Source: Candidatus Woesearchaeota archaeon (GTDB taxonomy: Archaea > Nanobdellota > Nanobdellia > Pacearchaeales > GW2011-AR1). Taken from it: a DNA stretch of 23,659 nucleotides. The notes beneath the pieces are model-generated. The model worked only from the letters and a program-made list of their open reading frames with translations, was not told the origin of the DNA and searched no databases. The number at the start of each line of letters is the position of its first letter. The stretch's first letter is position 1. Shown piece after piece: positions 204 to 22,954 of the stretch. The translations under genes were made by a program, and so were the position numbers. The DNA is taken from assembly GCA_964430085.1 (NCBI GenBank), contig CAYSES010000005.1, positions 7,677-31,335 on the forward strand. The letters run 5' to 3'.

Positions 204-398
204 ATGCATATTCTTCAACCTAAACACATAAAACTGAGTGAAAAAGAAGCCGAAGAACTATTGAAAAAATTAAATGTTTCTAAGGCCCAATTACCCAAAA
301 TCCTTTCTACAGATGCTGCCTTGCCAGAAGGTTGTAATGTGGGGGATATAATCAAAATTGAAAGAAAATCGGGGGACTATTTTAGAGTTGTTGTATAA
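204..398 (+). CDS. rpoH: DNA-directed RNA polymerase subunit H (Rpo5/Rpb5 C-terminal domain homologue)
   Basis: 64-aa ORF. The pattern HxLxPKHxxLSExEAEELLKKxN...LPKI...D...GDIIKIxRKS...YFRVV is typical of archaeal RpoH. It lies directly upstream of rpoB, with a TAATG stop/start overlap at 398. Confidence 0.85.
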   Translation: MHILQPKHIKLSEKEAEELLKKLNVSKAQLPKILSTDAALPEGCNVGDIIKIERKSGDYFRVVV

Positions 399-3300
399 TG
401 GAAAAAGAGAATCATCTTATAATAAAAAGATATCTTGAAGAACATTCACTAGTTGAATCAAACGTAATCTCTTTTAATGATTTTCTTGAACATAGGATGC
501 AGGAAATTGTAGATGAAATTTCTGAAAGTATGAATAATGAAGAATTTGAAATTATTCTAGGAAAAGTTAAAATTGAAAAACCAAAAGTAATCGAAGCTGA
601 TGGAAGCTCTTCATTGGTAATGCCTTTTGAAGCTCGTCTTAGAAATTTAACTTACTCTGCTCCAATTACTCTTGAAATAACAATAAAAAAAGGTGATCAA
701 GTTGATTCTGAAACTGTAGAAGTTGGGAAAATTCCAATTATGGTTAAGAGTAAAGCATGTAATACTTATGGCATGACTACTGAACAACTTATTGAGAATT
801 ACAATGACCCTTATGACCCTGGAGGCTATTTCATAATAAACGGAAATGAAAGAGTTATGATTATGGCAGAAGATTTAGCTGAGAACCAACCATTCATTGA
901 AACAAACAAAAAAGGAGAATTAACACTTAGACTATTTTCATTAAAGGGAACATACAGAATTCCTATAACAATATCTGAGAGTAAAGAAGGTCTTTTTGAT
1001 TTATCCTTCAGCAGATTCAAGGATTTGCCTGCAATTGTTATATTAAAGGCGCTAGGATTAACAAAGGAATCAGACATCGCAAAATACATTGGGAAAGAAA
1101 CTGACAGTGTTATAGTAAATTTATATGAATTTGTAAATTTAGCGACAAAAGAAGATGCAATGATGTTTATTGCAGAAAAGACAGGATTACAAGGAACAAA
1201 AAAAGAAATATTGGATAGAATTAAACAAAGAATTGATTCTTACTTATTACCCCACATAGGACATAAAAAAGAAGATAGATTAAACAAAGCAATTACTATC
1301 TGTAAATTAATAAAACAATTTCTAATAGCAAAAGAAAATCCACGATTAAGAACAGATAAAGACCACTATTCAAATAAGAGAGTAAGACTCTCAGGGGATT
1401 TATTAGCAAATCTTTTCAGAGTTAATCTTGGTATTTTAATAAGAGATATCCAATATTCTATTCAAAAAACATCAAAGAGAAGAAAATTCTTTTCTATAAA
1501 GGTAATAGCTAAATCAACATTATTTTCACATAGAGTAGAATCCGCAATTGCAACTGGAAGTTGGACAGGAGAAAGAAGCGGAGTTACTCAAAATATGGAT
1601 AAGACAAATTACTTTGCTATGATCTCACAATTGCAGAGAGTTTCAAGCATGCTTCCTTCTGATCAAGAAAACTTTTTAGCAAGAACACTTCATCCAACTC
1701 ATTTTGGAAGATTTTGTCCTATAGAAACTCCAGAAGGAACTGAAATTGGATTAAGAAAAAATCTTGCTATCTTAAGCAGAATTTCTACAAGAGTCAATCT
1801 AGATTATACGAAGTTTATCAAAGATTTAGAATCAATTGGAATGGAAAAAGAAGGCGTTGAGGGAGATGATGTCTTTTTTAATGGAAGATTTATAGGTAGC
1901 ATAAAAGATTCTGATGGTTTCATAAAAAAAATAAAAGATAAAAGAAGATCTGCAGAATTCCCAATTGAAATGAATGTAAGAAATGAAATGGGCTTCAGGA
2001 CAGTCCTAATTTCTACAGAACCTGGAAGAGTTTTAAGACCATTAATTGTTGTAGAGAATGGTACTCCAAAATTAAAAAATGAACATATAATACAAGTAGA
2101 ACAAGGAGAATTAAACTGGGAAGATTTATTGAATAAAGGAATCATAGAATATCTTGACGCTGCAGAAGAAGAAAATGCATTAACTGCGTTATATGAAGAA
2201 GAACTTACCCCAGAACATACTCATTTAGAGATTGATAACGTTGATATATTGGGAGCTGTAACAAGTTTGGTTCCTTATGGAAATCATGATCAGAGTTCAA
2301 GATTAAACAGAGGAAGTAAAACACAAAAACAGGCATTAGGATTATATGCTGCAAATTATCTCTGTAGACTTGATACTGATGTGTCTATTTTACAATATCC
2401 TCAAAAACCAATTGTCAGAAGTTTTATGTATGATACATTAAACACATATCCTGCAGGCCAAAACTTAGTTGTTGCAATAATGACTTATGAGGGGTATAAT
2501 ATGGAAGATGCATTAGTCTTAAATAAAGGAAGTGTTGAAAGGGGGATTGGAAGAAGTTTCTATTTCCGTCCTTATTCTGCATTGGAAATGAATTATGCCG
2601 GAGGATTAAAAGATGAAATTGCTATTCCTGAAAAAGATGCCTCTGGATACAAAACAGAAGCAAGTTATAGATTTTTAGAGGGAGATGGGGTAGTTTACCC
2701 TGAAGCAAAGATTAGCGAGGGAGAGGTAATGATCGGAAAAATGTCCCCTCCTAAATTCTTATCCGAAGCAAGAGAAATATCTATCAGAACAAAAAAAGAA
2801 TCTAGTATAACAATGAGACAAGAAGAAAAAGGAATTGTCGACGGTGTTTTTATAACTGAAGATTCTGAAGGAAATAAAATTGTACAAATCAGAACAAGAG
2901 ACCAGAGAATTCCTGAACTTGGAGATAAATTTGCAACATCACACGGACAGAAAGGAGTTATTGGAATGATAGTACCTCAAGAAGATATCCCCTTCACATC
3001 AAGAGGAGTTCGTCCTGATGTAATATTCAACCCACATGGTTTACCAAGTAGAATGACTGTCGGTTATTTATTAGAATTGCTTGCAGGAAAAGTTGGAAGT
3101 TTGAAAGGAGAAGTAGTTGATGGAACATGTTTCTCAGGGGTAAATAAAAAACAATTAGAAGAAAACCTCAAAGATCTAGGATTTAGATATGATGGTAAGG
3201 AAACAATGTATAATGGGATTACTGGAAAAAGAATGGCTGTTAAAATATTCATTGGAAATTTATATTACTTAAAATTGAAATACATGGTTGGAAACAAAAT

Positions 3301-3652
3301 GCATGGAAGAGCTTCTGGAAAAGTTGCATTGCTTACAAGACAACCTATTGAAGGAAGAGCAAGAGGTGGAGCATTGAGATTGGGAGAAATGGAACAGGAA
3401 GCATTAGTAGCTCACGGAGCATCATTATTACTTAAGGAAAGATATGACTCAGACAAAGTTGTATTGCCTATATGTACAAAATGCGGAAGTATTGGGATTG
3501 ATGATAATATCAGGAGTAAATTAATTTGCCCGATGTGTGGAAGTGAAGATATAGAGCCTGTAGAAATGTCTTACGCATTCAAATTATTACTTGAAGAATT
3601 GCAGGGATTACATATCCACACAACATTTGAATTAAAAAACAAATACGAATAA
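398..3652 (+). CDS. rpoB: DNA-directed RNA polymerase subunit B, unsplit (Rpo2)
   Basis: 1084-aa ORF with conserved Rpb2/RpoB blocks: FGRFCPIETPEG, GYNMEDA, GDKFATSHGQKGV, NPHGLPSRMTVG, GEMEQEALVAHGA. It ends in a C-terminal Cys4 zinc ribbon (CTKCGS...CPMCGS). Confidence 0.97.
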   Translation: MEKENHLIIKRYLEEHSLVESNVISFNDFLEHRMQEIVDEISESMNNEEFEIILGKVKIEKPKVIEADGSSSLVMPFEARLRNLTYSAPITLEITIKKGDQVDSETVEVGKIPIMVKSKACNTYGMTTEQLIENYNDPYDPGGYFIINGNERVMIMAEDLAENQPFIETNKKGELTLRLFSLKGTYRIPITISESKEGLFDLSFSRFKDLPAIVILKALGLTKESDIAKYIGKETDSVIVNLYEFVNLATKEDAMMFIAEKTGLQGTKKEILDRIKQRIDSYLLPHIGHKKEDRLNKAITICKLIKQFLIAKENPRLRTDKDHYSNKRVRLSGDLLANLFRVNLGILIRDIQYSIQKTSKRRKFFSIKVIAKSTLFSHRVESAIATGSWTGERSGVTQNMDKTNYFAMISQLQRVSSMLPSDQENFLARTLHPTHFGRFCPIETPEGTEIGLRKNLAILSRISTRVNLDYTKFIKDLESIGMEKEGVEGDDVFFNGRFIGSIKDSDGFIKKIKDKRRSAEFPIEMNVRNEMGFRTVLISTEPGRVLRPLIVVENGTPKLKNEHIIQVEQGELNWEDLLNKGIIEYLDAAEEENALTALYEEELTPEHTHLEIDNVDILGAVTSLVPYGNHDQSSRLNRGSKTQKQALGLYAANYLCRLDTDVSILQYPQKPIVRSFMYDTLNTYPAGQNLVVAIMTYEGYNMEDALVLNKGSVERGIGRSFYFRPYSALEMNYAGGLKDEIAIPEKDASGYKTEASYRFLEGDGVVYPEAKISEGEVMIGKMSPPKFLSEAREISIRTKKESSITMRQEEKGIVDGVFITEDSEGNKIVQIRTRDQRIPELGDKFATSHGQKGVIGMIVPQEDIPFTSRGVRPDVIFNPHGLPSRMTVGYLLELLAGKVGSLKGEVVDGTCFSGVNKKQLEENLKDLGFRYDGKETMYNGITGKRMAVKIFIGNLYYLKLKYMVGNKMHGRASGKVALLTRQPIEGRARGGALRLGEMEQEALVAHGASLLLKERYDSDKVVLPICTKCGSIGIDDNIRSKLICPMCGSEDIEPVEMSYAFKLLLEELQGLHIHTTFELKNKYE

Positions 3653-3653
3653 A

Positions 3654-6600
3654 ATGATAGAACAAAAACCAGTAAAGAAAAAAGTAGAAGAAATAAAATT
3701 CGCTTTATTTAGCCCTGATGATATTAAAAAAATATCAGCAGCAAAAATAGTCACACCTGAATTATATAATATAGATGGATATCCTGTAGACGGGGGATTG
3801 ATGGACTTAAGACTTGGAGCAATTGATCCGGGGGTAAGATGCCGTACTTGTGGAGGAAGATTAAAAGAATGTTTCGGACATCCCGGAAGCATTGACCTTG
3901 CAAGACCAGTGATTCATTTGAAATATGTTCCATTAATAGAACTCGGATTAAGATGTTTTTGCAGAGACTGCGGAAAATTATGTCTAGCTGACAAAGATTT
4001 AGAAAGATATACTCCAAGCGAAAGAGCAAAGAAAGCAAAAGATGCCAAAAAATGTCCTCATTGCGGCGCTGTTCATGAAAGAATTAAAGTTGATAAGCCC
4101 ACAAGTTTTTTCTTGGGCAAAAAAAGACTTTTCCCTACTGAGATAAGAGATATCCTTGTTAACATAAAAGAGGAAGAATTAAGAAAGATCGGAGTTAATC
4201 CTGTAACATGCAGACCCGAGTGGGCTGTTCTGACAATGTTATTAGTTCCTCCTGTAACAGTTCGTCCAAGTATAATATTAGAATCAGGCGAAAGAAGTGA
4301 AGATGATTTAACACACAAATTATCAGATATAATAAGAGCTAATCAAAGACTTTGGGAAAATCTAAATGCAGGAGCTCCTGAAGTTATTATTGAAGATTTA
4401 TGGGATCTACTGCAATTTCATATAACAACTTTCTTTGATAATAGTGTATCTAAGATTCCTCCTGCAAGACACAGAAGCGGACAGCCATTAAAAACAATAA
4501 TGGAAAGGATAAAGGGAAAAGAAGGAAGAATAAGAAAGAATCTTGCTGGTAAAAGAGTAAATTATTCTGGAAGAACAGTCATCTCTCCTGAACCTTATAT
4601 AGGGATTAATGAAGTTGGGATTCCTTATGAAATTGCCAAAGTAGTGACTGTTGCAGAAAGTGTAACTGATTTGAATATTCACAAATTAAAAAAATTAATT
4701 GAAAAATCTGAAGAATATCCGGGAGCAAATTACATAATAAGGCCTGATGGGAAGAGAAAGAAAATAACCCCTGATTTAAAAGAAGAAATAATCAGTGAAC
4801 TTGCCCCAGGCTATAAAGTTGAAAGGCATTTACAGGACGGAGATGTTGTTTTATTTAACAGACACCCAAGTCTTCACAGAGGAAGTTTAATGGCTCACTT
4901 TGTGAGAGTTCTTCCTGGAAGAACTTTCAGATTACACCCTGCTGTAGCTGCTCCGTATAATGCAGACTTTGACGGAGATGAAATGAACATACATTCACCT
5001 CAAACAGAAGAAGCAAGAGCAGAAGCAAAAATTCTTCTTGATGTAAAAAGAAATCTTATTTCTCCAAAGAATAACACAAATCTCATAGGATGTATTGGAG
5101 ATGCAATAACAGGGACTTATCTTCTTGGAGAAGAAGAATTTTCAAGAGATTATGCAGATGAACTTCTTTTCAAATCAGGCATTGATTATAAAATTTCAAA
5201 GAAAACAATGAAAGGAACAGAAATTTTTTCTGCAGTACTTCCTAAAGTTAACTTCTCTAATGATTCTATACAAATTAAAAACGGAGAAATTGTGAAAGGA
5301 GAAATAAACAAAACTTTATTCGGAAGTGAAGACGGTGAATTGATTAAAGAACTTGAGAAAGATGTAGGAACTAATGAAACATTCGAAACAATAAGAAAAG
5401 TATTTAATTTAGGGGTTAAGTATTTATCAGACAGGGGGATAACAATTTCTGTAGAAGATTTGGATTTAGATCCTAGTGTTATTGAAGCCGGTGAAGAAAT
5501 AATCAAAAAAGCAGAAAAGAAAACAGAAGAGATTATTGAATCATACAATAAAAAAGAATTAGAAAGAATTCCAGGAAAAACAGAAGAAGAATCAAGAGAA
5601 ATTATAATACTTCAAACATTAAACGAAGTAAGAACCAAGATCGGAGAGATAGTAAAAGAAAAATTCCCAAAAGACAACCCTGTAAATCACATGATTATGT
5701 CAGGGGGCGGAGGGAATATATTGAATATTACACAAATGGCTTCATGTGTCGGGCAGCAGGCTTTGTGGGGAAGGAGAATTGATATAGGATACACTCAAAG
5801 AACATTATCTTCTTTCAAACAAGGAGACTTATCTCCAAAGGCAAGAGGATTTATCAGAAGTTCTTTTATCAAGGGATTGCGTCCTGATGAATTTTTCTTT
5901 GGAGCGATTACAGGGAGAGATTCTCTTATGGATACTGCATTAAGAACACCTAAATCAGGGTATTTATACAGAAGATTAGCTAATGCATTGCAAGATCTCA
6001 GAGTAGAATACGACGGAACAATAAGAGACAGCAATAACAGTTTAATCCAATACAAATATGGTGATGATGGACTTGATGTTTCAAAACTTCATCTTAAGGA
6101 ACAAATAAAACCAGGAGAAGCAATAGGTGTTGTAACTGCACAATCTTTTGGAGAACCTTCTACACAGATGGCATTAAATGTATTTCACTTTGCAGGTGTA
6201 CATGAAATGCAGATTACACAAGGTCTTCCAAGACTTATAGAAATTTTTGATGCAAGAAAAAAACCTTCATCTCCAAAAATGGAAATTTTCCTTAAAAAAG
6301 AACACAATAATGAAAAAGATACCAAGATTTTTGCTGAAAAAATAAAAGAAGTAACATTAAGAGAAATAGCATCAGAAATAAATCTTAATTTCAGCAATAA
6401 AATAATTGAAATAAAAATTGACAGAGAAGGATTGAGGCAAACACATAGCTCGATAAAGACTATTGTAGATAAACTTAACAAATTAGGATTCAAGGTTAAA
6501 GAAAAAACAGATTCAATCACCTTGAATGCATCTGAATTTAATTTCAAAGACATATATAAACTAAAAGAAAAATTAAAGAAAACAATAATCTCTGGAATTA

Positions 6601-7148
6601 AAGGAATAAAACAAATCCTGATTGTTAAGAAAGGAAAAGATTTTGTAATAATGACTCTGGGAACAAATTTGAAAAAGATAATTGAACTTAAAGAAGTTGA
6701 TGCTGATAAGATTATATCCAATGATTTATATGAAGTTGCAGATATTTTTGGAATAGAAGTTGCAAGGCAATTGATAATGGATGAAATTTACAGTGTAATA
6801 AACACCCAGGGATTAGACATAAATGAAAGACATCTAAAACTTGTTTCAGATGCTATGACAAGTACTGGAGGAATTAAGGGGGTTACAAGAATGGGGATAA
6901 TCGCACAAAAATCTTCAATACTAGCAAGAGCAACTTTTGAAACTCCTGGAAAACAATTCATTAATGCGACGATAAAAGGAAGCAAAGACAGATTAGTAAG
7001 TGTTATAGAAAACATAATGCTTAACCAACCTGTTCCAATCGGGACCGGACTTCCGGGTCTTTTAGTTAAAGTGATTGGATCTTTAGTAAAGAAAGAAGAT
7101 GAAAAGAAAACAGCAAAAAAAGAAGTTGTAGAAAATACTAACAAATGA
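3654..7148 (+). CDS. rpoA: DNA-directed RNA polymerase subunit A, with A' and A'' parts in one continuous ORF (Rpo1N-Rpo1C fusion)
   Basis: 1164-aa ORF. It has N-terminal zinc motifs (CRTCGG...CFGHPG; CRDCG...CPHCG), the catalytic NADFDGDEMN (nt 4959-4988) and a bridge-helix block (GLRPDEFFFGAITGRDSLMDTALRT). YGDDGLDV is then followed after 10 aa by the A''-type trigger-loop block PGEAIGVVTAQSFGEPSTQMALNVFHFAGV...GLPRLIEIFDARK. Confidence 0.95.
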   Translation: MIEQKPVKKKVEEIKFALFSPDDIKKISAAKIVTPELYNIDGYPVDGGLMDLRLGAIDPGVRCRTCGGRLKECFGHPGSIDLARPVIHLKYVPLIELGLRCFCRDCGKLCLADKDLERYTPSERAKKAKDAKKCPHCGAVHERIKVDKPTSFFLGKKRLFPTEIRDILVNIKEEELRKIGVNPVTCRPEWAVLTMLLVPPVTVRPSIILESGERSEDDLTHKLSDIIRANQRLWENLNAGAPEVIIEDLWDLLQFHITTFFDNSVSKIPPARHRSGQPLKTIMERIKGKEGRIRKNLAGKRVNYSGRTVISPEPYIGINEVGIPYEIAKVVTVAESVTDLNIHKLKKLIEKSEEYPGANYIIRPDGKRKKITPDLKEEIISELAPGYKVERHLQDGDVVLFNRHPSLHRGSLMAHFVRVLPGRTFRLHPAVAAPYNADFDGDEMNIHSPQTEEARAEAKILLDVKRNLISPKNNTNLIGCIGDAITGTYLLGEEEFSRDYADELLFKSGIDYKISKKTMKGTEIFSAVLPKVNFSNDSIQIKNGEIVKGEINKTLFGSEDGELIKELEKDVGTNETFETIRKVFNLGVKYLSDRGITISVEDLDLDPSVIEAGEEIIKKAEKKTEEIIESYNKKELERIPGKTEEESREIIILQTLNEVRTKIGEIVKEKFPKDNPVNHMIMSGGGGNILNITQMASCVGQQALWGRRIDIGYTQRTLSSFKQGDLSPKARGFIRSSFIKGLRPDEFFFGAITGRDSLMDTALRTPKSGYLYRRLANALQDLRVEYDGTIRDSNNSLIQYKYGDDGLDVSKLHLKEQIKPGEAIGVVTAQSFGEPSTQMALNVFHFAGVHEMQITQGLPRLIEIFDARKKPSSPKMEIFLKKEHNNEKDTKIFAEKIKEVTLREIASEINLNFSNKIIEIKIDREGLRQTHSSIKTIVDKLNKLGFKVKEKTDSITLNASEFNFKDIYKLKEKLKKTIISGIKGIKQILIVKKGKDFVIMTLGTNLKKIIELKEVDADKIISNDLYEVADIFGIEVARQLIMDEIYSVINTQGLDINERHLKLVSDAMTSTGGIKGVTRMGIIAQKSSILARATFETPGKQFINATIKGSKDRLVSVIENIMLNQPVPIGTGLPGLLVKVIGSLVKKEDEKKTAKKEVVENTNK

Positions 7149-17702: not shown

Positions 17703-18869
17703 ATGGATGAAAAAGACACAAAAATGAATGCAAAAAGAACTTTGGTTTCTTTTTTGTTAATCGCAAGTGTTTTGTTCTTAGCTGCTACAGTTAGTGCTGC
17801 TGGAACTACAAGTGAAGTAGTTAAGGTTGATGGAATTAGTGTAGTGGATAGTCCCGCATTAATCACTGGCGACACTATAAGTGTTAAAGTTAAGTTCACT
17901 GCGAGTGTTGACGCATCAGATGTTAGAGTTAAAGCAACACTTGAAGGAAACAAAGATGATGTAACCGATGTTACTCATTATTTTGATGTTGTAGATGGGA
18001 ATACTTATACCCAGATTTTAACATTGAAAGTTCCTTCTGATATCGATAAAGATGAGATATCTGATAAATTTACTTTAACTATTAAGGTCTGGAATTCAGA
18101 CGATGATGTAACTTATGAAGATGAATGGGATTTAACTGTTCAAAGACCTTCATATGACTTTGCTATAAAGTCAGTAAATGTTGACAATTCAATTGATGCT
18201 GGACAATCTGTTCCAGTTGAAGTTGTATTGAAAAATGTTGGTTACAATAATGCAGATGATGTTTACGTAACTGTAAGCATACCAGAACTTAACATCGAAA
18301 AATCAGCCTATCTTGGAGACCTTGTTACAAAGAATTACAAGGACACTTTAAGTACTGATGACGATGACACAGACACTGTTAGTGGTAGACTTTACTTAGA
18401 AGTTCCTTACACTGCTAAGTCTGGAGTTTATACACTTGTAGTTACTGCTGAAAACGATGAAACAACAAGCACTGCTGAGAAACAAGTAGCAATAGAAAAC
18501 AGCGTTTCTGACATTGCAATGAAGTCAGGGAATGATTTGGTATTAATTAACCCTACAAACCAATTAAAGGTTTACAGAGTTGTTTACGGATCAAATGATG
18601 TTACTGTTGTTATTCAAGCTGGTTCAAGCAAGACAATTACAATAGAAACTGCAGAAGATACTGATGTAATGGTTTATTCTGGAGAAACTCTATTAAGCAC
18701 TGTTAAATTCAGCGGTTCAGCTCAGACAACTGAAGACCAATTAACAAACCCAGTATTCGTACTTACAGTTATACTAGCAATAGTATTCCTTGTTTTGTTA
18801 GTTGTATTGGTTGTTTTGATAACAAAGAAACCACAGAAAACTGAAGAATTCGGCGAAAGTTATTACTAA
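17703..18869 (+). CDS. Cell-surface protein with a signal peptide, tandem beta-sandwich (CARDB/Ig-like) domains and a C-terminal TM anchor; S-layer or adhesin candidate
   Basis: 388-aa ORF. N-terminal signal-like segment KRTLVSFLLIASVLFLAATVSAAG. Two similar T/V/D-rich modules of about 110 aa (e.g. VNVDNSIDAGQSVPVEVVLKNVGYNNADDVYVTVSIP). C-terminal hydrophobic helix VFVLTVILAIVFLVLLVVLVVLI followed by KKPQK. The true start may be the second ATG at 17724 (MNAKRT...). Confidence 0.7.
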   Translation: MDEKDTKMNAKRTLVSFLLIASVLFLAATVSAAGTTSEVVKVDGISVVDSPALITGDTISVKVKFTASVDASDVRVKATLEGNKDDVTDVTHYFDVVDGNTYTQILTLKVPSDIDKDEISDKFTLTIKVWNSDDDVTYEDEWDLTVQRPSYDFAIKSVNVDNSIDAGQSVPVEVVLKNVGYNNADDVYVTVSIPELNIEKSAYLGDLVTKNYKDTLSTDDDDTDTVSGRLYLEVPYTAKSGVYTLVVTAENDETTSTAEKQVAIENSVSDIAMKSGNDLVLINPTNQLKVYRVVYGSNDVTVVIQAGSSKTITIETAEDTDVMVYSGETLLSTVKFSGSAQTTEDQLTNPVFVLTVILAIVFLVLLVVLVVLITKKPQKTEEFGESYY

Positions 18870-18996: not shown

Positions 18997-19404
18997 ATGG
19001 ATGTCTTACAAAAACTAGAACCTCGATGGGGGTTTGATTATGTAGCATATCAAATTGAACATAATGAAATCAATTTTAGTGATACTGGAAGAATTTATGT
19101 TGGGACTATAAAAGTTTTCTTTGATAATATAGAAAGGGAGCTTGAATCAATAGTAAATCCAAAACAAGATTATTTTTTAGTAGATAATTTAAAAAGATTG
19201 CATGAAATAATTGGTGGAGAAAAAGATTTTTCAAAGAAAGGAATTGAGAATACAATCCAAAAAATCGACAAAATAAAAAAACAATTAGATAATCTTGTTG
19301 AAAATCCAAAAGAGTTTTATAAAAGCAAAGATTCTGAAGAATTATTCAATCTTTGCAAAAAAATCAACAAAATTTATGAACTTAAGTTTAAACCCTCATA
19401 CTAA
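18997..19404 (+). CDS. Hypothetical protein (135 aa)
   Basis: Intact ORF with an A/T 8-mer (CTTAAAAA, 18967-18974) 22 nt upstream. No motif was recognised. Its 3' end overlaps the convergent SMC 3' end by 17 nt. Confidence 0.45.
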   Translation: MDVLQKLEPRWGFDYVAYQIEHNEINFSDTGRIYVGTIKVFFDNIERELESIVNPKQDYFLVDNLKRLHEIIGGEKDFSKKGIENTIQKIDKIKKQLDNLVENPKEFYKSKDSEELFNLCKKINKIYELKFKPSY

Positions 19405-22243
19405 GAATTCTGCTAATTCCATCATGCATACTCACCCCATAGATATTTGTGGCATTGGTTATAACCTCATCATTGTGAGTGATTACAATATATTGTCCTT
19501 TTTGCATGTATTTCTTCAAAAGATCTGCAAGTCTCTCTGAATTTCTTTTGTCAAGCGCAGCATCTATTTCATCAAATATGTAAAAATAATATGGTTTTAA
19601 TTCTTGTATAGCAAAAATCAAGGATAAGGCAACAAGAGTTTGTTCCCCACCTGAAAGCGATTTAACATCAAAATATTTTCCATGCCCCATTTTTACAATA
19701 ATATTAACTCCTCCACTAAAAGGATCTTTCTTATTTTCAAGATCAAGGGATACGTGTCCCTTTGAACTTAATTGGGAAAAATTTCTGGAAAAAATCTCAT
19801 TTAAAGAATTCAAGGTTTGAAGAAATATTTTTTTCTTTTTCACATCAATTTCATGGATTATTTTTAAAATTCCTTCTTTTTCTCTTGTAATAATCTCTGT
19901 CTTCTCTTTGATTAAATCATATTCTTTTTTTATTGAATCATAAACTTCAAGAGAACGCATGTTTACAGAACCAATTTTTGATAATAACTCTTGGGTTCGG
20001 TTTAATCTTTCAAGCAATGAACTTTTGTTTGCTTTTATTATTTCGGCATTAGGGAAATCAAGCATTTCTGTTTCAAGGTTTTCAATTTCAGCACTGACTC
20101 TTGCCATGTCAATTTTTAAGTTATTCATTTCCTGTTCAAGGTTATGTACTATATTCTGTTTTCTTGAAATTTCTATTTCATTATCCCTTATCTTTCTTTG
20201 GAAAGAATCTCTTTCAGATATCATTCTCTGGAATTTTTCTACAAGACTTTCTTCCTGTTTTTTCTTTTTTTCAAGCAACTCGCTTTTTTCATCAATCTTC
20301 TCATTCATTTCTTCAAGTTCAGAATTTAAATCTTCTTCTTCTCTTGATAATTGTTTTAGGGAAACTTTTGAACGTTCAAGGTCTCTTGCTTTAAAAGAAA
20401 TTTCTGAATCAAGGTTTTCCTGATTTCTCATGGATATTTCCTGAACTTCTATTTTAAGTGTTTCATATTTTTGTTCTATGTTTGAATTTTCATCAAAAGA
20501 ATTTTCAAGATTCTTTTCTCTTCTCATAAGTTCAGAAATTTCCCCTTTTAGATAATCAATTTTTTCTTGAAGGGTTTTTATTTGATTTTGTTTTTCATGG
20601 ATATTTGAAATTTTTATCAAATCAGAATTTGCTTTTGAGATATTCAAATTTATTTGTTCTATTTCGTCATTGAGCATGCCCTTTTTTCCGTATATTTCGT
20701 TTAATTCTTTATCTGAATTGTTAATCTCCTTTTGAAGGGAATCAACTGCCTGATGCATCTCCTTATGCATTGAGTCTATATGCTCTTTGGTTATTTTGCA
20801 TTTACAAAGAGGGCAAATATCCATTTTTGAGATTTTTTCTATTAGTTTTTTTTGCTTGTCAATTTCATATTCATTTGCTGCGGAGATTTTTTCAAGGCTT
20901 ATCTCTCTCTTTGCTAGATTTTCCATTAAGTTTTTCTTTTCTGAAAGAGCTATTTTTAGTCTGTCAATTTTTTCGGGAGTTGCTTTCATATCAGAAAGTT
21001 CTTGGGAGATTGATTTTATTTGCTTTAACAGGAAATCAGATTCAGTAATATATGAATTAAAATTTGTCTTTTTATCCTGAATTCTTTCTTTTAATGATTT
21101 CAATTCAGATTTTATTGTGTAGAATTTTTTTCTTTGTTCTTCGACTTTTTCTAGTTCATTTTGTTTTGCTTCTGCTTCTTTTTGAGTCTTTGCTGAAGAA
21201 AGGGGTTTCTGAAGTTCTTTTAAACTCAAGTCAGTATTCCTAATTGATTCTTGAAGATCTTGTTTTTCCTTAGATATAGAAGATATTTTATTTTCATAGT
21301 TTTCTGAGCGTACTTTCATGCCTGCAAGCTCTGCTCTTATATTAGCTATTTCTTGATTTAGTCTTTCTTGTTCAAGTCCAGTGGATTTTTGGATTGTTGA
21401 ATTTATAGATGAAATTTTGGATTCTATATTTTCTATAATTGTCTGAAGTTCAATTATCTTTTTTCTTTCTTTTTCTATTTCTTTATTTTTGTTAGAAATT
21501 TTTAAATTAATTTCATCAGAAATTTTTCTCTTTTGAGTTATGTCTCCGTAAATGATACTTGCTTTTAATTTTTTTACGTCTTCCTGAAGTTTCTTGAATC
21601 TTAATGCCTGTTGTCTTTCTTTCTCTAAGTTGTTCAAATAAATTGTCCTTTCTCTTAAAATTGCTAATACTTCTTTTAGTTTTTCTTCTGTTTTTTCTAA
21701 TTCTCTTAAGGATTTTTCTTTTCTCATTTCATAAATAGAAATTCCTGAAACTTCCTCAATTACTTTTCTTCTTTCTTCTGATTGCATTCTTACAAAATTC
21801 TGAATTTCTCCCTGAAGAACTATATTAAAACCATTTGGATCTATTCCTCCCTGAGCAAGGAGAGATAAAACTTCCTGTCTTGTCTTTGTTTCATTATTTA
21901 TTTTGTATATACTTTGTCCATTTCTTCTTACTATTCTTTTAATTGAAATTTCATTGGCATCAATTGAAAAAACTTTATCTGAGTTGTCAATTATTATTTC
22001 AACCATTGCTTCTTTTGCCGGAGCAAATGATTTATTCCCCAAGAAAATAAGATTCCCTGCTTTTGCAGCCCTCATTGATTTTATGCTTAATCGCCCAAGA
22101 ACAAAACATAATGCATCAGAGATATTACTTTTTCCACTTCCGTTTGCTCCAATAATTACATTAATGCCAGGGGCAAGGGGAACTTCTGTTTTTTTTACAA
22201 AGCTCTTAAATCCATATATCACTAATTTTTTGATATAAAGCAT
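19388..22243 (-). CDS. smc: SMC-family chromosome-organisation ATPase with a hinge-less architecture and a central CxxC (zinc-hook-like) motif
   Basis: 951-aa ORF. N-terminal head: Walker A GANGSGKSN (nt 22127-22150), FVLGRLSIKSMRA, QGEIQNFVRMQSEERRKVIEEVSGIS. C-terminal head: signature LSGGEQTLVALSLIFA (LSGGE at nt 19643-19657), Walker B/D-loop FYIFDEIDAALD, then ITHNDE...IYGVSM. The roughly 600 aa between them are coiled-coil-like. CPLC sits at aa 477-480 (nt 20804-20815). Confidence 0.9.
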   Translation of the reverse strand: MLYIKKLVIYGFKSFVKKTEVPLAPGINVIIGANGSGKSNISDALCFVLGRLSIKSMRAAKAGNLIFLGNKSFAPAKEAMVEIIIDNSDKVFSIDANEISIKRIVRRNGQSIYKINNETKTRQEVLSLLAQGGIDPNGFNIVLQGEIQNFVRMQSEERRKVIEEVSGISIYEMRKEKSLRELEKTEEKLKEVLAILRERTIYLNNLEKERQQALRFKKLQEDVKKLKASIIYGDITQKRKISDEINLKISNKNKEIEKERKKIIELQTIIENIESKISSINSTIQKSTGLEQERLNQEIANIRAELAGMKVRSENYENKISSISKEKQDLQESIRNTDLSLKELQKPLSSAKTQKEAEAKQNELEKVEEQRKKFYTIKSELKSLKERIQDKKTNFNSYITESDFLLKQIKSISQELSDMKATPEKIDRLKIALSEKKNLMENLAKREISLEKISAANEYEIDKQKKLIEKISKMDICPLCKCKITKEHIDSMHKEMHQAVDSLQKEINNSDKELNEIYGKKGMLNDEIEQINLNISKANSDLIKISNIHEKQNQIKTLQEKIDYLKGEISELMRREKNLENSFDENSNIEQKYETLKIEVQEISMRNQENLDSEISFKARDLERSKVSLKQLSREEEDLNSELEEMNEKIDEKSELLEKKKKQEESLVEKFQRMISERDSFQRKIRDNEIEISRKQNIVHNLEQEMNNLKIDMARVSAEIENLETEMLDFPNAEIIKANKSSLLERLNRTQELLSKIGSVNMRSLEVYDSIKKEYDLIKEKTEIITREKEGILKIIHEIDVKKKKIFLQTLNSLNEIFSRNFSQLSSKGHVSLDLENKKDPFSGGVNIIVKMGHGKYFDVKSLSGGEQTLVALSLIFAIQELKPYYFYIFDEIDAALDKRNSERLADLLKKYMQKGQYIVITHNDEVITNATNIYGVSMHDGISRILSMRV

Positions 22244-22285: not shown

Positions 22286-22954
22286 TTATTCAAACAATTT
22301 TTTCTGTTCTGCGACAGCACATGCCTCTCTCCAAGTACCCCATGTTTTCCTAAATATGCCTTTATTCGCATGCTCTTTTGAATGTAGTTCAAGAAATTTA
22401 TATGTTTTGGGATCAGAGCAATAACCTGAACCCATTTCATTCCCATATTCTCCTTTTAATTTGTCCATCTCTGTCTCCCTTACGCATTTAGCAAGGATAG
22501 AAGCAGCTGAAACAGAAACATATTTTTGATCAGCTTTATGTTCGCAAACAATTTCTAGATTTGAAAGATTGTTAATTTTAGTTTTTAAGAAATCTTTCCA
22601 TTTTTCAATGCTTACTGAGGGGCAGTCTATAATTACTTTAATCCTTGTGAATCCTTTATTTATCTTGTTTATGATTTCGGCCATTTTTAATGCCTCAATT
22701 GCATTCAGATTTACTCCATGAGCATTCTTCCCATCTATCTCTTTAGGGTAAGCAAGTGTAATTTCAAAAGTTTCAGCAGCATCTTTTATTTTCTCTGATA
22801 AGAATTCTCTTCTTTTTTGTGTTAATTTCTTTGAATCTTTTACTCCAAGTCTTTTAAGTTTCCCTTCTTCACTGTCATCTATAAGACATCCTGCCAGAAC
22901 CATTGGCCCAATAACAGGACCTCTTCCTGCATCATCTATACCTAACACTAACAT
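22286..22954 (-). CDS. rnhB: Ribonuclease HII
   Basis: 222-aa ORF with GIDDAGRGPVIGPMVLAG, DSKKLTQKRRE and HKADQKYVSVSAASILAK, typical of archaeal RNase HII. Confidence 0.93.
   Translation of the reverse strand: MLVLGIDDAGRGPVIGPMVLAGCLIDDSEEGKLKRLGVKDSKKLTQKRREFLSEKIKDAAETFEITLAYPKEIDGKNAHGVNLNAIEALKMAEIINKINKGFTRIKVIIDCPSVSIEKWKDFLKTKINNLSNLEIVCEHKADQKYVSVSAASILAKCVRETEMDKLKGEYGNEMGSGYCSDPKTYKFLELHSKEHANKGIFRKTWGTWREACAVAEQKKLFE

Follow-up and report, generated by a model that had tools for sequence, protein, structure and literature searches.

The gene at positions 19388..22243 on the minus strand of the window (by which we mean the whole analysed stretch of 23,659 nucleotides (nt) from the Candidatus Woesearchaeota contig CAYSES010000005.1) encodes 951 amino acids (aa) followed by a stop codon, according to the listing of open reading frames (ORFs), Pfam, and NCBIfam. 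We consider it probable that the product is a condensin-type SMC protein of a Pacearchaeota-like DPANN archaeon, in which a CPxC zinc hook of the type known from the DNA-repair protein Rad50 has taken the place of the ancestral globular hinge (about 215 aa), with locus and arm length kept. A sequence-only reading of this DNA had proposed a natural chimera of this kind; the presence of a hook on SMC heads and arms is borne out by the results below, and the hook may plausibly have come from rad50 by recombination.

The N-terminal half of the head (aa 1-167; 21743..22243, minus strand), delimited by motif positions and matches in the PDB, contains the Walker A motif GANGSGKS at aa 32-39 (nt 22127-22150), KSMRA at aa 55-59 (nt 22067-22081), and the Q-loop LQGEIQNF at aa 143-150 (nt 21794-21817). 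The C-terminal half, delimited in the same way (aa 826-951 plus the stop codon; 19388..19768, minus strand), contains the signature LSGGEQ at aa 863-868 (nt 19640-19657), the Walker B motif FYIFDEID at aa 887-894 (nt 19562-19585), the D-loop AALD (nt 19550-19561), the H-loop ITHND at aa 921-925 (nt 19469-19483), and IYGVSM at aa 934-939. The head motifs quoted in the sequence-only reading were all found in this ORF at the places it gave.

It was found that Pfam SMC_N spans aa 3-944 of the protein (E = 8e-48). Compared as a whole with the NCBIfam models, the protein scored 535.2 bits on SMC_prok_A (TIGR02169; cut-off 729.4) and 509.4 bits on SMC_prok_B (TIGR02168; cut-off 567.35). Neither equivalog cut-off was reached, because the hinge segment of the models is missing from the protein: the TIGR02169 match comes in two stretches, which leave the hinge part of the model uncovered and the first of which covers model positions 1-482 of 1165. 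The Rad50 models gave 49-112 bits against cut-offs of 700-1087, and the SbcC model gave 29 bits against a cut-off of 478; the model of no family other than SMC exceeded 124 bits. The top matches in the PDB were head constructs of Pyrococcus Smc, namely 5xei (367 bits), 5xns (326 bits), and 4i99 (295 bits), aligned over aa 1-246, 1-198, and 1-182, respectively, and the C-terminal half matched Smc 3kta_B and 1xew_Y over aa 801-949, whereas the Rad50 heads in the PDB reached about 45 bits. Therefore, given how far the SMC models and the Pyrococcus Smc heads outscored Rad50, the heads are SMC heads, and as judged by sequence the split ABC-ATPase head is SMC-type and closer to Smc than to other SMC-superfamily heads. 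The earlier assignment of both head halves to SMC rather than Rad50/SbcC thus stands on bit scores, and also on the nesting of these halves among SMCs in the head-half tree described below.

No match to SMC_hinge (PF06470) was found in the window protein with Pfam, even at E ≤ 10, and a hinge hidden Markov model (HMM) that we built from 20 canonical SMCs had no match at E ≤ 10 in any CPxC protein, in agreement with the hinge-less central region described from the sequence alone. In most hinge-type relatives, by contrast, this HMM found a match, at 1e-40 to 1e-84. Insufficient sensitivity does not explain the miss, because Pfam SMC_hinge detects the hinge of the related DPANN SMC P0164 at 1e-31.

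The approximately 650 residues that separate the head halves form a near-unbroken helix in the AlphaFold2 predictions, and aa 168-825 are rich in E, K, I, and L, with only 8 Gly and 4 Pro. From the AlphaFold2 helices and the alignment to hinge SMCs, we delimited an ascending (N-terminal) arm at aa 168-473 (20825..21742) and a descending (C-terminal) arm at aa 486-825 (19769..20788), both on the minus strand. The full-length model (predicted local distance difference test score, pLDDT, 72, with the heads poorly modelled) has helices at aa 168-340, 355-414, and 423-473, a loop at aa 474-485, and further helices at aa 486-585, 589-602, 613-727, 740-757, and 763-825, and all four prolines (P347, P423, P478, and P731) lie at or beside helix breaks. 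A fold search with this model returned SMC complexes with meaningless superpositions (root mean square deviation 25-115 Å), which reflects the extended rod shape of the model and the poor quality of its heads. The separately modelled fragment aa 400-560 (pLDDT 94; predicted template modelling score 0.72) shows a helix to aa 472, a 13-residue loop with CPLC, and a second helix. By these models, the arm is predicted to be an antiparallel coiled coil along its whole length, each strand contributing about 300 residues or more.

Alignment to hinge-bearing relatives showed where the length difference lies. Against the Woesearchaeota-type hinge SMC P0157, aa 1-446 of the window protein align to aa 1-463 and aa 578-951 to aa 779-1157, and the hinge of P0157 occupies aa 484-699, about 216 aa; against a second hinge SMC, P0155, aa 512-949 align to aa 713-1138. 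The C-terminal offsets in these alignments, +201 to +206, are explained by the hinge segment of about 216 aa. The arm lengths are equal to those of the hinge relatives, and therefore it appears that about 215 aa of hinge were exchanged in situ for a hook of about 12 aa.

The apex loop (aa 474-485; 20789..20824, minus strand), delimited by residue invariance, profiles, and the two models, holds CPLC at aa 477-480 (nt 20804-20815), followed by KCKITKEH, at the arithmetic midpoint of the 951-aa protein. The position given for this motif in the sequence-only reading is correct. The protein has four Cys in total, and the third of them, C482 (CPLCKC; nt 20798-20800), does not belong to the motif: it is unique to the window sequence and is replaced in the other homologues examined by S, N, T, or another residue. 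The residues C, P, and C, on the other hand, are invariant in 120 of the 120 close homologues listed (each at least 68% identical), in all of about 35 cluster representatives that span the midpoint (the full-length ones being 40-66% identical), and in 80 of 80 loci from GTDB species representatives. The proteins of those 80 loci are 948-955 aa long and without internal stops, with the single exception of a match that ends at a contig end. Among proteins 40-100% identical overall, no residue of the central 94 aa other than C, P, and C is invariant, and the extended family motif reads [LIM][DE]xCPxCxxx[ILMV][TSD]xx[HY]. These invariance sets, together with the full-length and fragment models, place a conserved CxxC at a predicted helix-loop-helix apex, as had been proposed.

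When a profile of the central 94 aa was compared with the PDB, the top match was the Pyrococcus furiosus Rad50 zinc hook 1L8D (E = 2.5e-8), aligned end to end over the whole hook and both flanking helices, with iskld-iCPlCkskitkeh opposite lkkakgKCPVCGRELTDEH. The next matches were 6ZFF (1.7e-7) and the human RAD50 hook 5GOX (1.4e-4), and the first unrelated coiled coil appeared at 2.6e-3, so that 1L8D was five orders of magnitude better. At the level of single family members, Pfam Rad50_zn_hook (PF04423) was matched at E ≤ 1 by 32 of 33 central fragments (best 1.3e-7), and archaeal Rad50 NCBIfam models were matched at the hook position by 31 of the 33. In a Foldseek search of the PDB with the fragment model, the Rad50 zinc hook 1l8d_B came first of 350,542 chains. 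The CPxC at the coiled-coil apex therefore resembles Rad50 hooks at the level of sequence profiles.

To evaluate how the hook protein relates to canonical SMCs, the head halves of 81 proteins were concatenated (333 columns), and a neighbour-joining tree was built from them. The hook proteins and four forms of about 800 aa, described below, fall into one clade (bootstrap 90/100), which in the observed tree adjoins a group of Woesearchaeota-type hinge SMCs. The nearest hinge-bearing proteins are SMCs of 1140-1160 aa, 36-42% identical, and the two of them that have named cluster members are from Woesearchaeota. In the genome, an RNase HII gene (22286..22954, minus strand; Pfam RNase_HII E = 1.5e-46) lies directly upstream of the window smc with a gap of 42 nt. 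RNase HII is upstream of and co-oriented with smc in 73 of 83 hook loci; the most divergent hook loci and the locus of an 804-aa form have it upstream as well, and at the hinge-type smc genes of Woesearchaeota it is found 0.5-3 kb upstream. Genes for CN_hydrolase, RimK-type ATP-grasp, and NUDIX proteins are further neighbours common to hook and hinge loci. This common gene neighbourhood makes the hook and hinge loci positional orthologues, and by the head tree and the conserved locus together, the hook protein is an orthologue of canonical smc. We know of no functional link between RNase HII and SMC.

Named homologues came from metagenome-assembled genomes of Candidatus Pacearchaeota, Nanoarchaeota, or Nanoarchaeia, some of them labelled Woesearchaeota by their submitters, and the NCBI taxonomy places Pacearchaeota within Nanobdellati, that is, DPANN. 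The family peptides IDPNGFNI and [IV]LQGEIQN led to 335 relatives among GTDB species representatives, confirmed by tblastn. Submitter taxonomy is unreliable for this group: among contigs whose hook-SMC genes are 66-68% identical (L039, JBAZBJ010000017.1; L054; and many other loci), the labels include 'Parcubacteria group bacterium', 'Candidatus Iainarchaeum', and, very often, 'Candidatus Woesearchaeota', and at least one contig looks mis-binned.

Two hook-SMC genes were found on one contig of 777 kb, JBFOMX010000005.1 (L001 at 670-693 kb and L094 at 72-95 kb), and were considered as possible paralogues or partners in a heterodimer. We rejected this interpretation: the whole neighbourhood, including EF-1a and EF-2, is doubled, and the two SMCs are 84% identical, so that the contig most likely joins two strains in assembly.

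A broader proposal concerns the lineage as a whole. In an order-level DPANN lineage (Pacearchaeota-type Nanoarchaeota, which number 80 species-level genomes or more and probably over 300), the only condensin would be hook-based, some sublineages would have gone on to lose the hook as well, leaving a hinge-less SMC of about 800 aa, and the hook would have been captured from the lineage's own Rad50 by recombination between coiled-coil genes. We regard the case for this proposal as evenly balanced. If it is true, then natural SMCs can function without the hinge and without the DNA-binding and DNA-gate roles proposed for it. The sublineage forms in question are SMCs of about 780-804 aa with normal heads: P0140/P0298 (L012 6279-8693 and L013 6069-8483), P0143, P0144, and P0146. 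They come from Pacearchaeota-type genomes, one of which is GCA_002780285.1, and are encoded at the RNase HII-smc locus.

Two further kinds of variant were observed among the relatives. In the hook-type P0122 and P0130 (1479 and 1483 aa), Walker A is directly followed by an inserted stretch of about 525-550 aa, as it is in the hinge-type P0164, P0169, P0171, P0178, and others (1660-1805 aa); in both cases scanned with Pfam (P0122 and P0164), the insertion is an intein, with Intein_splicing and a LAGLIDADG homing endonuclease. P0241 and P0269 (about 1480 aa) combine SMC heads with a very long, acidic, Cys-free, non-hinge middle, which is another unusual apex architecture.

Partner genes were sought in the same neighbourhoods. 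In the window and in the ±10 kb around each of the hook and hinge loci examined, ScpA (PF02616) and ScpB (PF04079) were not found. Neither was seen in Pfam and NCBIfam scans of the window's unassigned ORFs and the unannotated Pacearchaeota and Woesearchaeota neighbours, nor in the Pfam lists of 12 neighbourhoods, and the archaeal ScpA motif DPWxIDI had no match in 1.46 Mb of loci, which is a weak test. The sequence-only reading had taken the missing downstream scpA as a pointer to an architecturally different condensin; this carries no weight, because the hinge-type smc genes of Woesearchaeota are equally without an adjacent scpA. An Mre11/SbcD-type phosphoesterase was found neither in the window nor in 83 related loci, and no NurA/HerA or defence partner was found near the window smc.

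Several of our observations weigh against the interpretation given at the outset. The sister set of the hook clade and the Woesearchaeota group had a bootstrap of only 12/100, and the head-half tree was made by neighbour-joining only and without a Rad50 or ASRP outgroup. The four forms of about 780-804 aa lie inside the hook clade with no hinge and no CxxC of any kind, and therefore the apex Cys pair is not indispensable in the group. ScpA and ScpB were not found within ±10 kb in any locus examined, and the role of the protein as the sole, kleisin-dependent SMC is putative. With regard to the hook itself, the Foldseek match to 1l8d, although ranked first, had an E value of only 0.019, and helical hairpins are unspecific. 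Of the zinc-hook resemblance claimed from the sequence alone, the profile match holds for the family fragments and is sub-threshold for the window protein by itself, which scored 15-16 bits on Pfam Rad50_zn_hook against a gathering score of 24.3; the assignment of the hook therefore rests on family-level profiles. Finally, dimerisation through zinc bound by the CPxC is something that we infer by analogy with Rad50.

The last points bear most directly on an alternative in which the protein is an SMC orthologue whose CPxC, instead of forming an intermolecular zinc hook, makes a turn in the structure or has an intramolecular or redox role, with dimerisation provided by head or kleisin contacts or by packing of the apex helices. 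The apex-less relatives at the same locus, in which the Cys pair is dispensable, fit this alternative, as do the modest Foldseek value and the fact that the structural models are of the monomer. However, C, P, and C are the sole invariant residues of the central 94 aa, CPxCxxx[IL]TxEH matches the P. furiosus Rad50 sequence CPVCGRELTDEH residue for residue in the profile alignment, and tetrahedral zinc would require two chains, as in Rad50, because two Cys are insufficient. We consider this alternative improbable, and it is the only one that we do not dismiss. Less probable still is a reading in which the protein, rather than being an Smc orthologue, is a paralogue akin to SMC-related proteins such as ASRP/ClsN/Sph or arcadin-4 and acts beside or instead of a condensin. 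In its favour, the known archaeal ASRP family combines SMC-like heads and coiled coils with a zinc hook (PMC9389158), and central fragments of the hook family matched ASRP in 24 of 33 cases and arcadin-4 in 19 of 33. The ASRP model NF045487 gave 124.4 bits for the window protein, but this is far under its cut-off of 300, and the best stretch (aa 299-675) comprises the coiled coil and hook only, whereas the heads reach 535 bits on the SMC equivalog, cluster among SMCs in the tree, and are encoded at a locus syntenic with hinge-type smc. Furthermore, the arm length is that of a canonical SMC, about twice that of the 593-position ASRP model.

Two other possibilities can be given very little credence. 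One is that an ordinary Rad50/SbcC, or an SMC of a defence system (Lamassu LmuB or Wadjet JetC), has been misread as SMC; we judge this very unlikely and effectively excluded by the head scores and the gene context. A central CxxC hook is indeed present, the Rad50 models align full-length, and PADLOC reported mad3 at 169 bits and LmuB at 87 bits. The 49-112 bits of the Rad50 models are, however, far under the cut-offs of 700-1087, as are the 45 bits or so of the Rad50 heads in the PDB under the 367 bits of Pyrococcus Smc, and the gene stands in a core housekeeping neighbourhood kept in 73 of 83 genomes. The PADLOC scores reflect generic head similarity, and on these scores and the gene context the defence-system interpretation was rejected. 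The other, that the short middle is an artefact of assembly or annotation, with the hinge deleted in this contig, has the unusual length and nothing further in its favour, and its probability is negligible. The same architecture of 943-959 aa was found in the 120 close homologues listed, from NCBI, JGI, ENA, and Logan assemblies, in the 80 GTDB species representatives without internal stops, and in cluster representatives down to 40% identity. A misassembly or deletion across the middle, which the sequence-only reading had allowed for, is thus excluded by hundreds of independent assemblies.

Returning to the preferred interpretation, a hook-bearing SMC orthologue, we suggest the following mechanism. 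Each chain would fold back at the hook, forming an antiparallel coiled coil of about 300 residues per strand that unites the two head halves. Two chains would be tied permanently at the apex by one Zn2+ held by four Cys, two from each CPxC, as in Rad50. ATP binding would engage the two heads by way of Walker A and the signature motif, and hydrolysis would free them, and this engagement and release would power the SMC cycle on DNA in the usual way; a kleisin, if there is one in the genome, presumably takes part. Of the functions of the hinge, the hook would then supply only constitutive dimerisation, which agrees with the functional replacement of the Bacillus subtilis Smc hinge by the P. furiosus hook.

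The remainder of the window provides the setting of the gene. The neighbours of smc are genes for RNase HII, a major facilitator superfamily transporter, a secreted protein, a Toprim protein, and translation factors. When the 1227 ORFs flanking smc in the 83 hook loci were clustered, only RNase HII, the secreted protein, the Toprim protein, and PCMT emerged as conserved neighbours, and a Toprim (DnaG-like) gene is often near the RNase HII-smc pair. The second most conserved neighbour, present in 54-62 related loci, is of the type encoded at 17703-18869 (plus strand), downstream of and convergent with smc; this protein of about 390-400 aa has an N-terminal signal-like segment and a C-terminal transmembrane segment and is a possible surface protein. 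The ORF at 18997-19404 (plus strand; 135 aa) is also convergent and overlaps the 3′ end of smc by 17 nt. It was without a family match, and tblastn found homologues in just 3 of 93 related loci (35% identity). The sequence-only reading had called the downstream neighbour a convergent orphan, which is correct as to orientation and too strict as to orphan status, given these weak homologues. Elsewhere in the window, rpoB (398-3652) is unsplit, and a single ORF of 1164 aa at 3654-7148 (plus strand) contains Rpb1 domains 1-5, so that the large RNA polymerase subunit appears fused and compact. In archaea, this subunit is normally split into A′ and A″.

In the databases, the hook proteins are named plainly 'chromosome segregation protein SMC', and they are thus filed as ordinary SMCs despite the missed equivalog cut-off and the absent hinge. 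In the searchable literature, with subscription-only journals outside its scope, we came across no account of an SMC orthologue that carries a zinc hook naturally. It has long been asked which roles the hinge has beyond joining the arms, such as DNA binding, forming a DNA entry gate, or communicating with the heads, and the family offers an evolutionary test of which hinge functions are essential. It also offers a natural minimal SMC for structural and single-molecule work, and the hinge, hook, and apex-less forms in one clade make up a comparative series.

Compared with Smc-ScpAB (Pyrococcus Smc 5xei and 4i99, and the hinge SMCs of Woesearchaeota), the window protein is alike in head motifs, head sequence, and arm length. 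It is 39-46% identical to the Woesearchaeota SMCs over heads and arms and shares with them a position just downstream of RNase HII, but it completely lacks the hinge region (about 215 aa, containing PF06470 and its GRxTFLPL block) and has a CPxC loop of 12 residues there instead. Compared with the Rad50/SbcC hook (PF04423; 1L8D/6ZFF and 5GOX), it is alike in having a CPxC at the apex of an antiparallel coiled coil and, as in archaeal Rad50, the pattern CPxCxxx[IL]TxEH. It is unlike Rad50 in that the heads are not Rad50-type, no Mre11 partner gene is nearby, and the arms are SMC arms with SMC-like breaks.

Among archaeal proteins of the SMC superfamily, the ASRPs (ClsN/coalescin and Sph1/2; Yoshinaga et al. 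2022, PMC9389158) and arcadin-4 likewise have a zinc hook instead of a hinge. The ASRPs are, however, separate and shorter, with divergent heads, whereas the window protein has bona fide SMC heads. A 'hinge-less' SMC clade has been described from marine Actinobacteria, explicitly without CXXC (Sussfeld et al. 2025, PMC12153180). The window protein resembles it as a natural SMC-clade protein without a hinge, and differs in being archaeal and in having a conserved hook in the hinge's place; the closer analogue of the actinobacterial clade is the apex-less Pacearchaeota form of about 800 aa.

The closest known parallel to the hook SMC is an engineered one. In B. subtilis Smc(Zh), which the sequence-only reading had described correctly, the hinge was exchanged for the P. 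furiosus Rad50 zinc hook, and the resulting protein supports growth, with its function depending on arm length (Buermann et al. 2017, PMC5344682). The reciprocal chimera, Rad50 with a MukB hinge in fission yeast, indicated that hook and hinge can stand in for each other there too (Tatebe et al. 2020, PMC6969161). Like Smc(Zh), the window protein combines SMC heads and arms with a Rad50-type hook, and it retains the ancestral arm length; unlike Smc(Zh), it is natural, ancient (with members down to 40% identical), and fixed in a lineage, and it is known here from its sequence. The family is thus the natural counterpart of the Smc(Zh) experiment, its principle predictable from that work: it appears that evolution has made the same hinge-to-hook swap as engineering, with the ancestral arm length kept, and has maintained it to a divergence of 40% identity.

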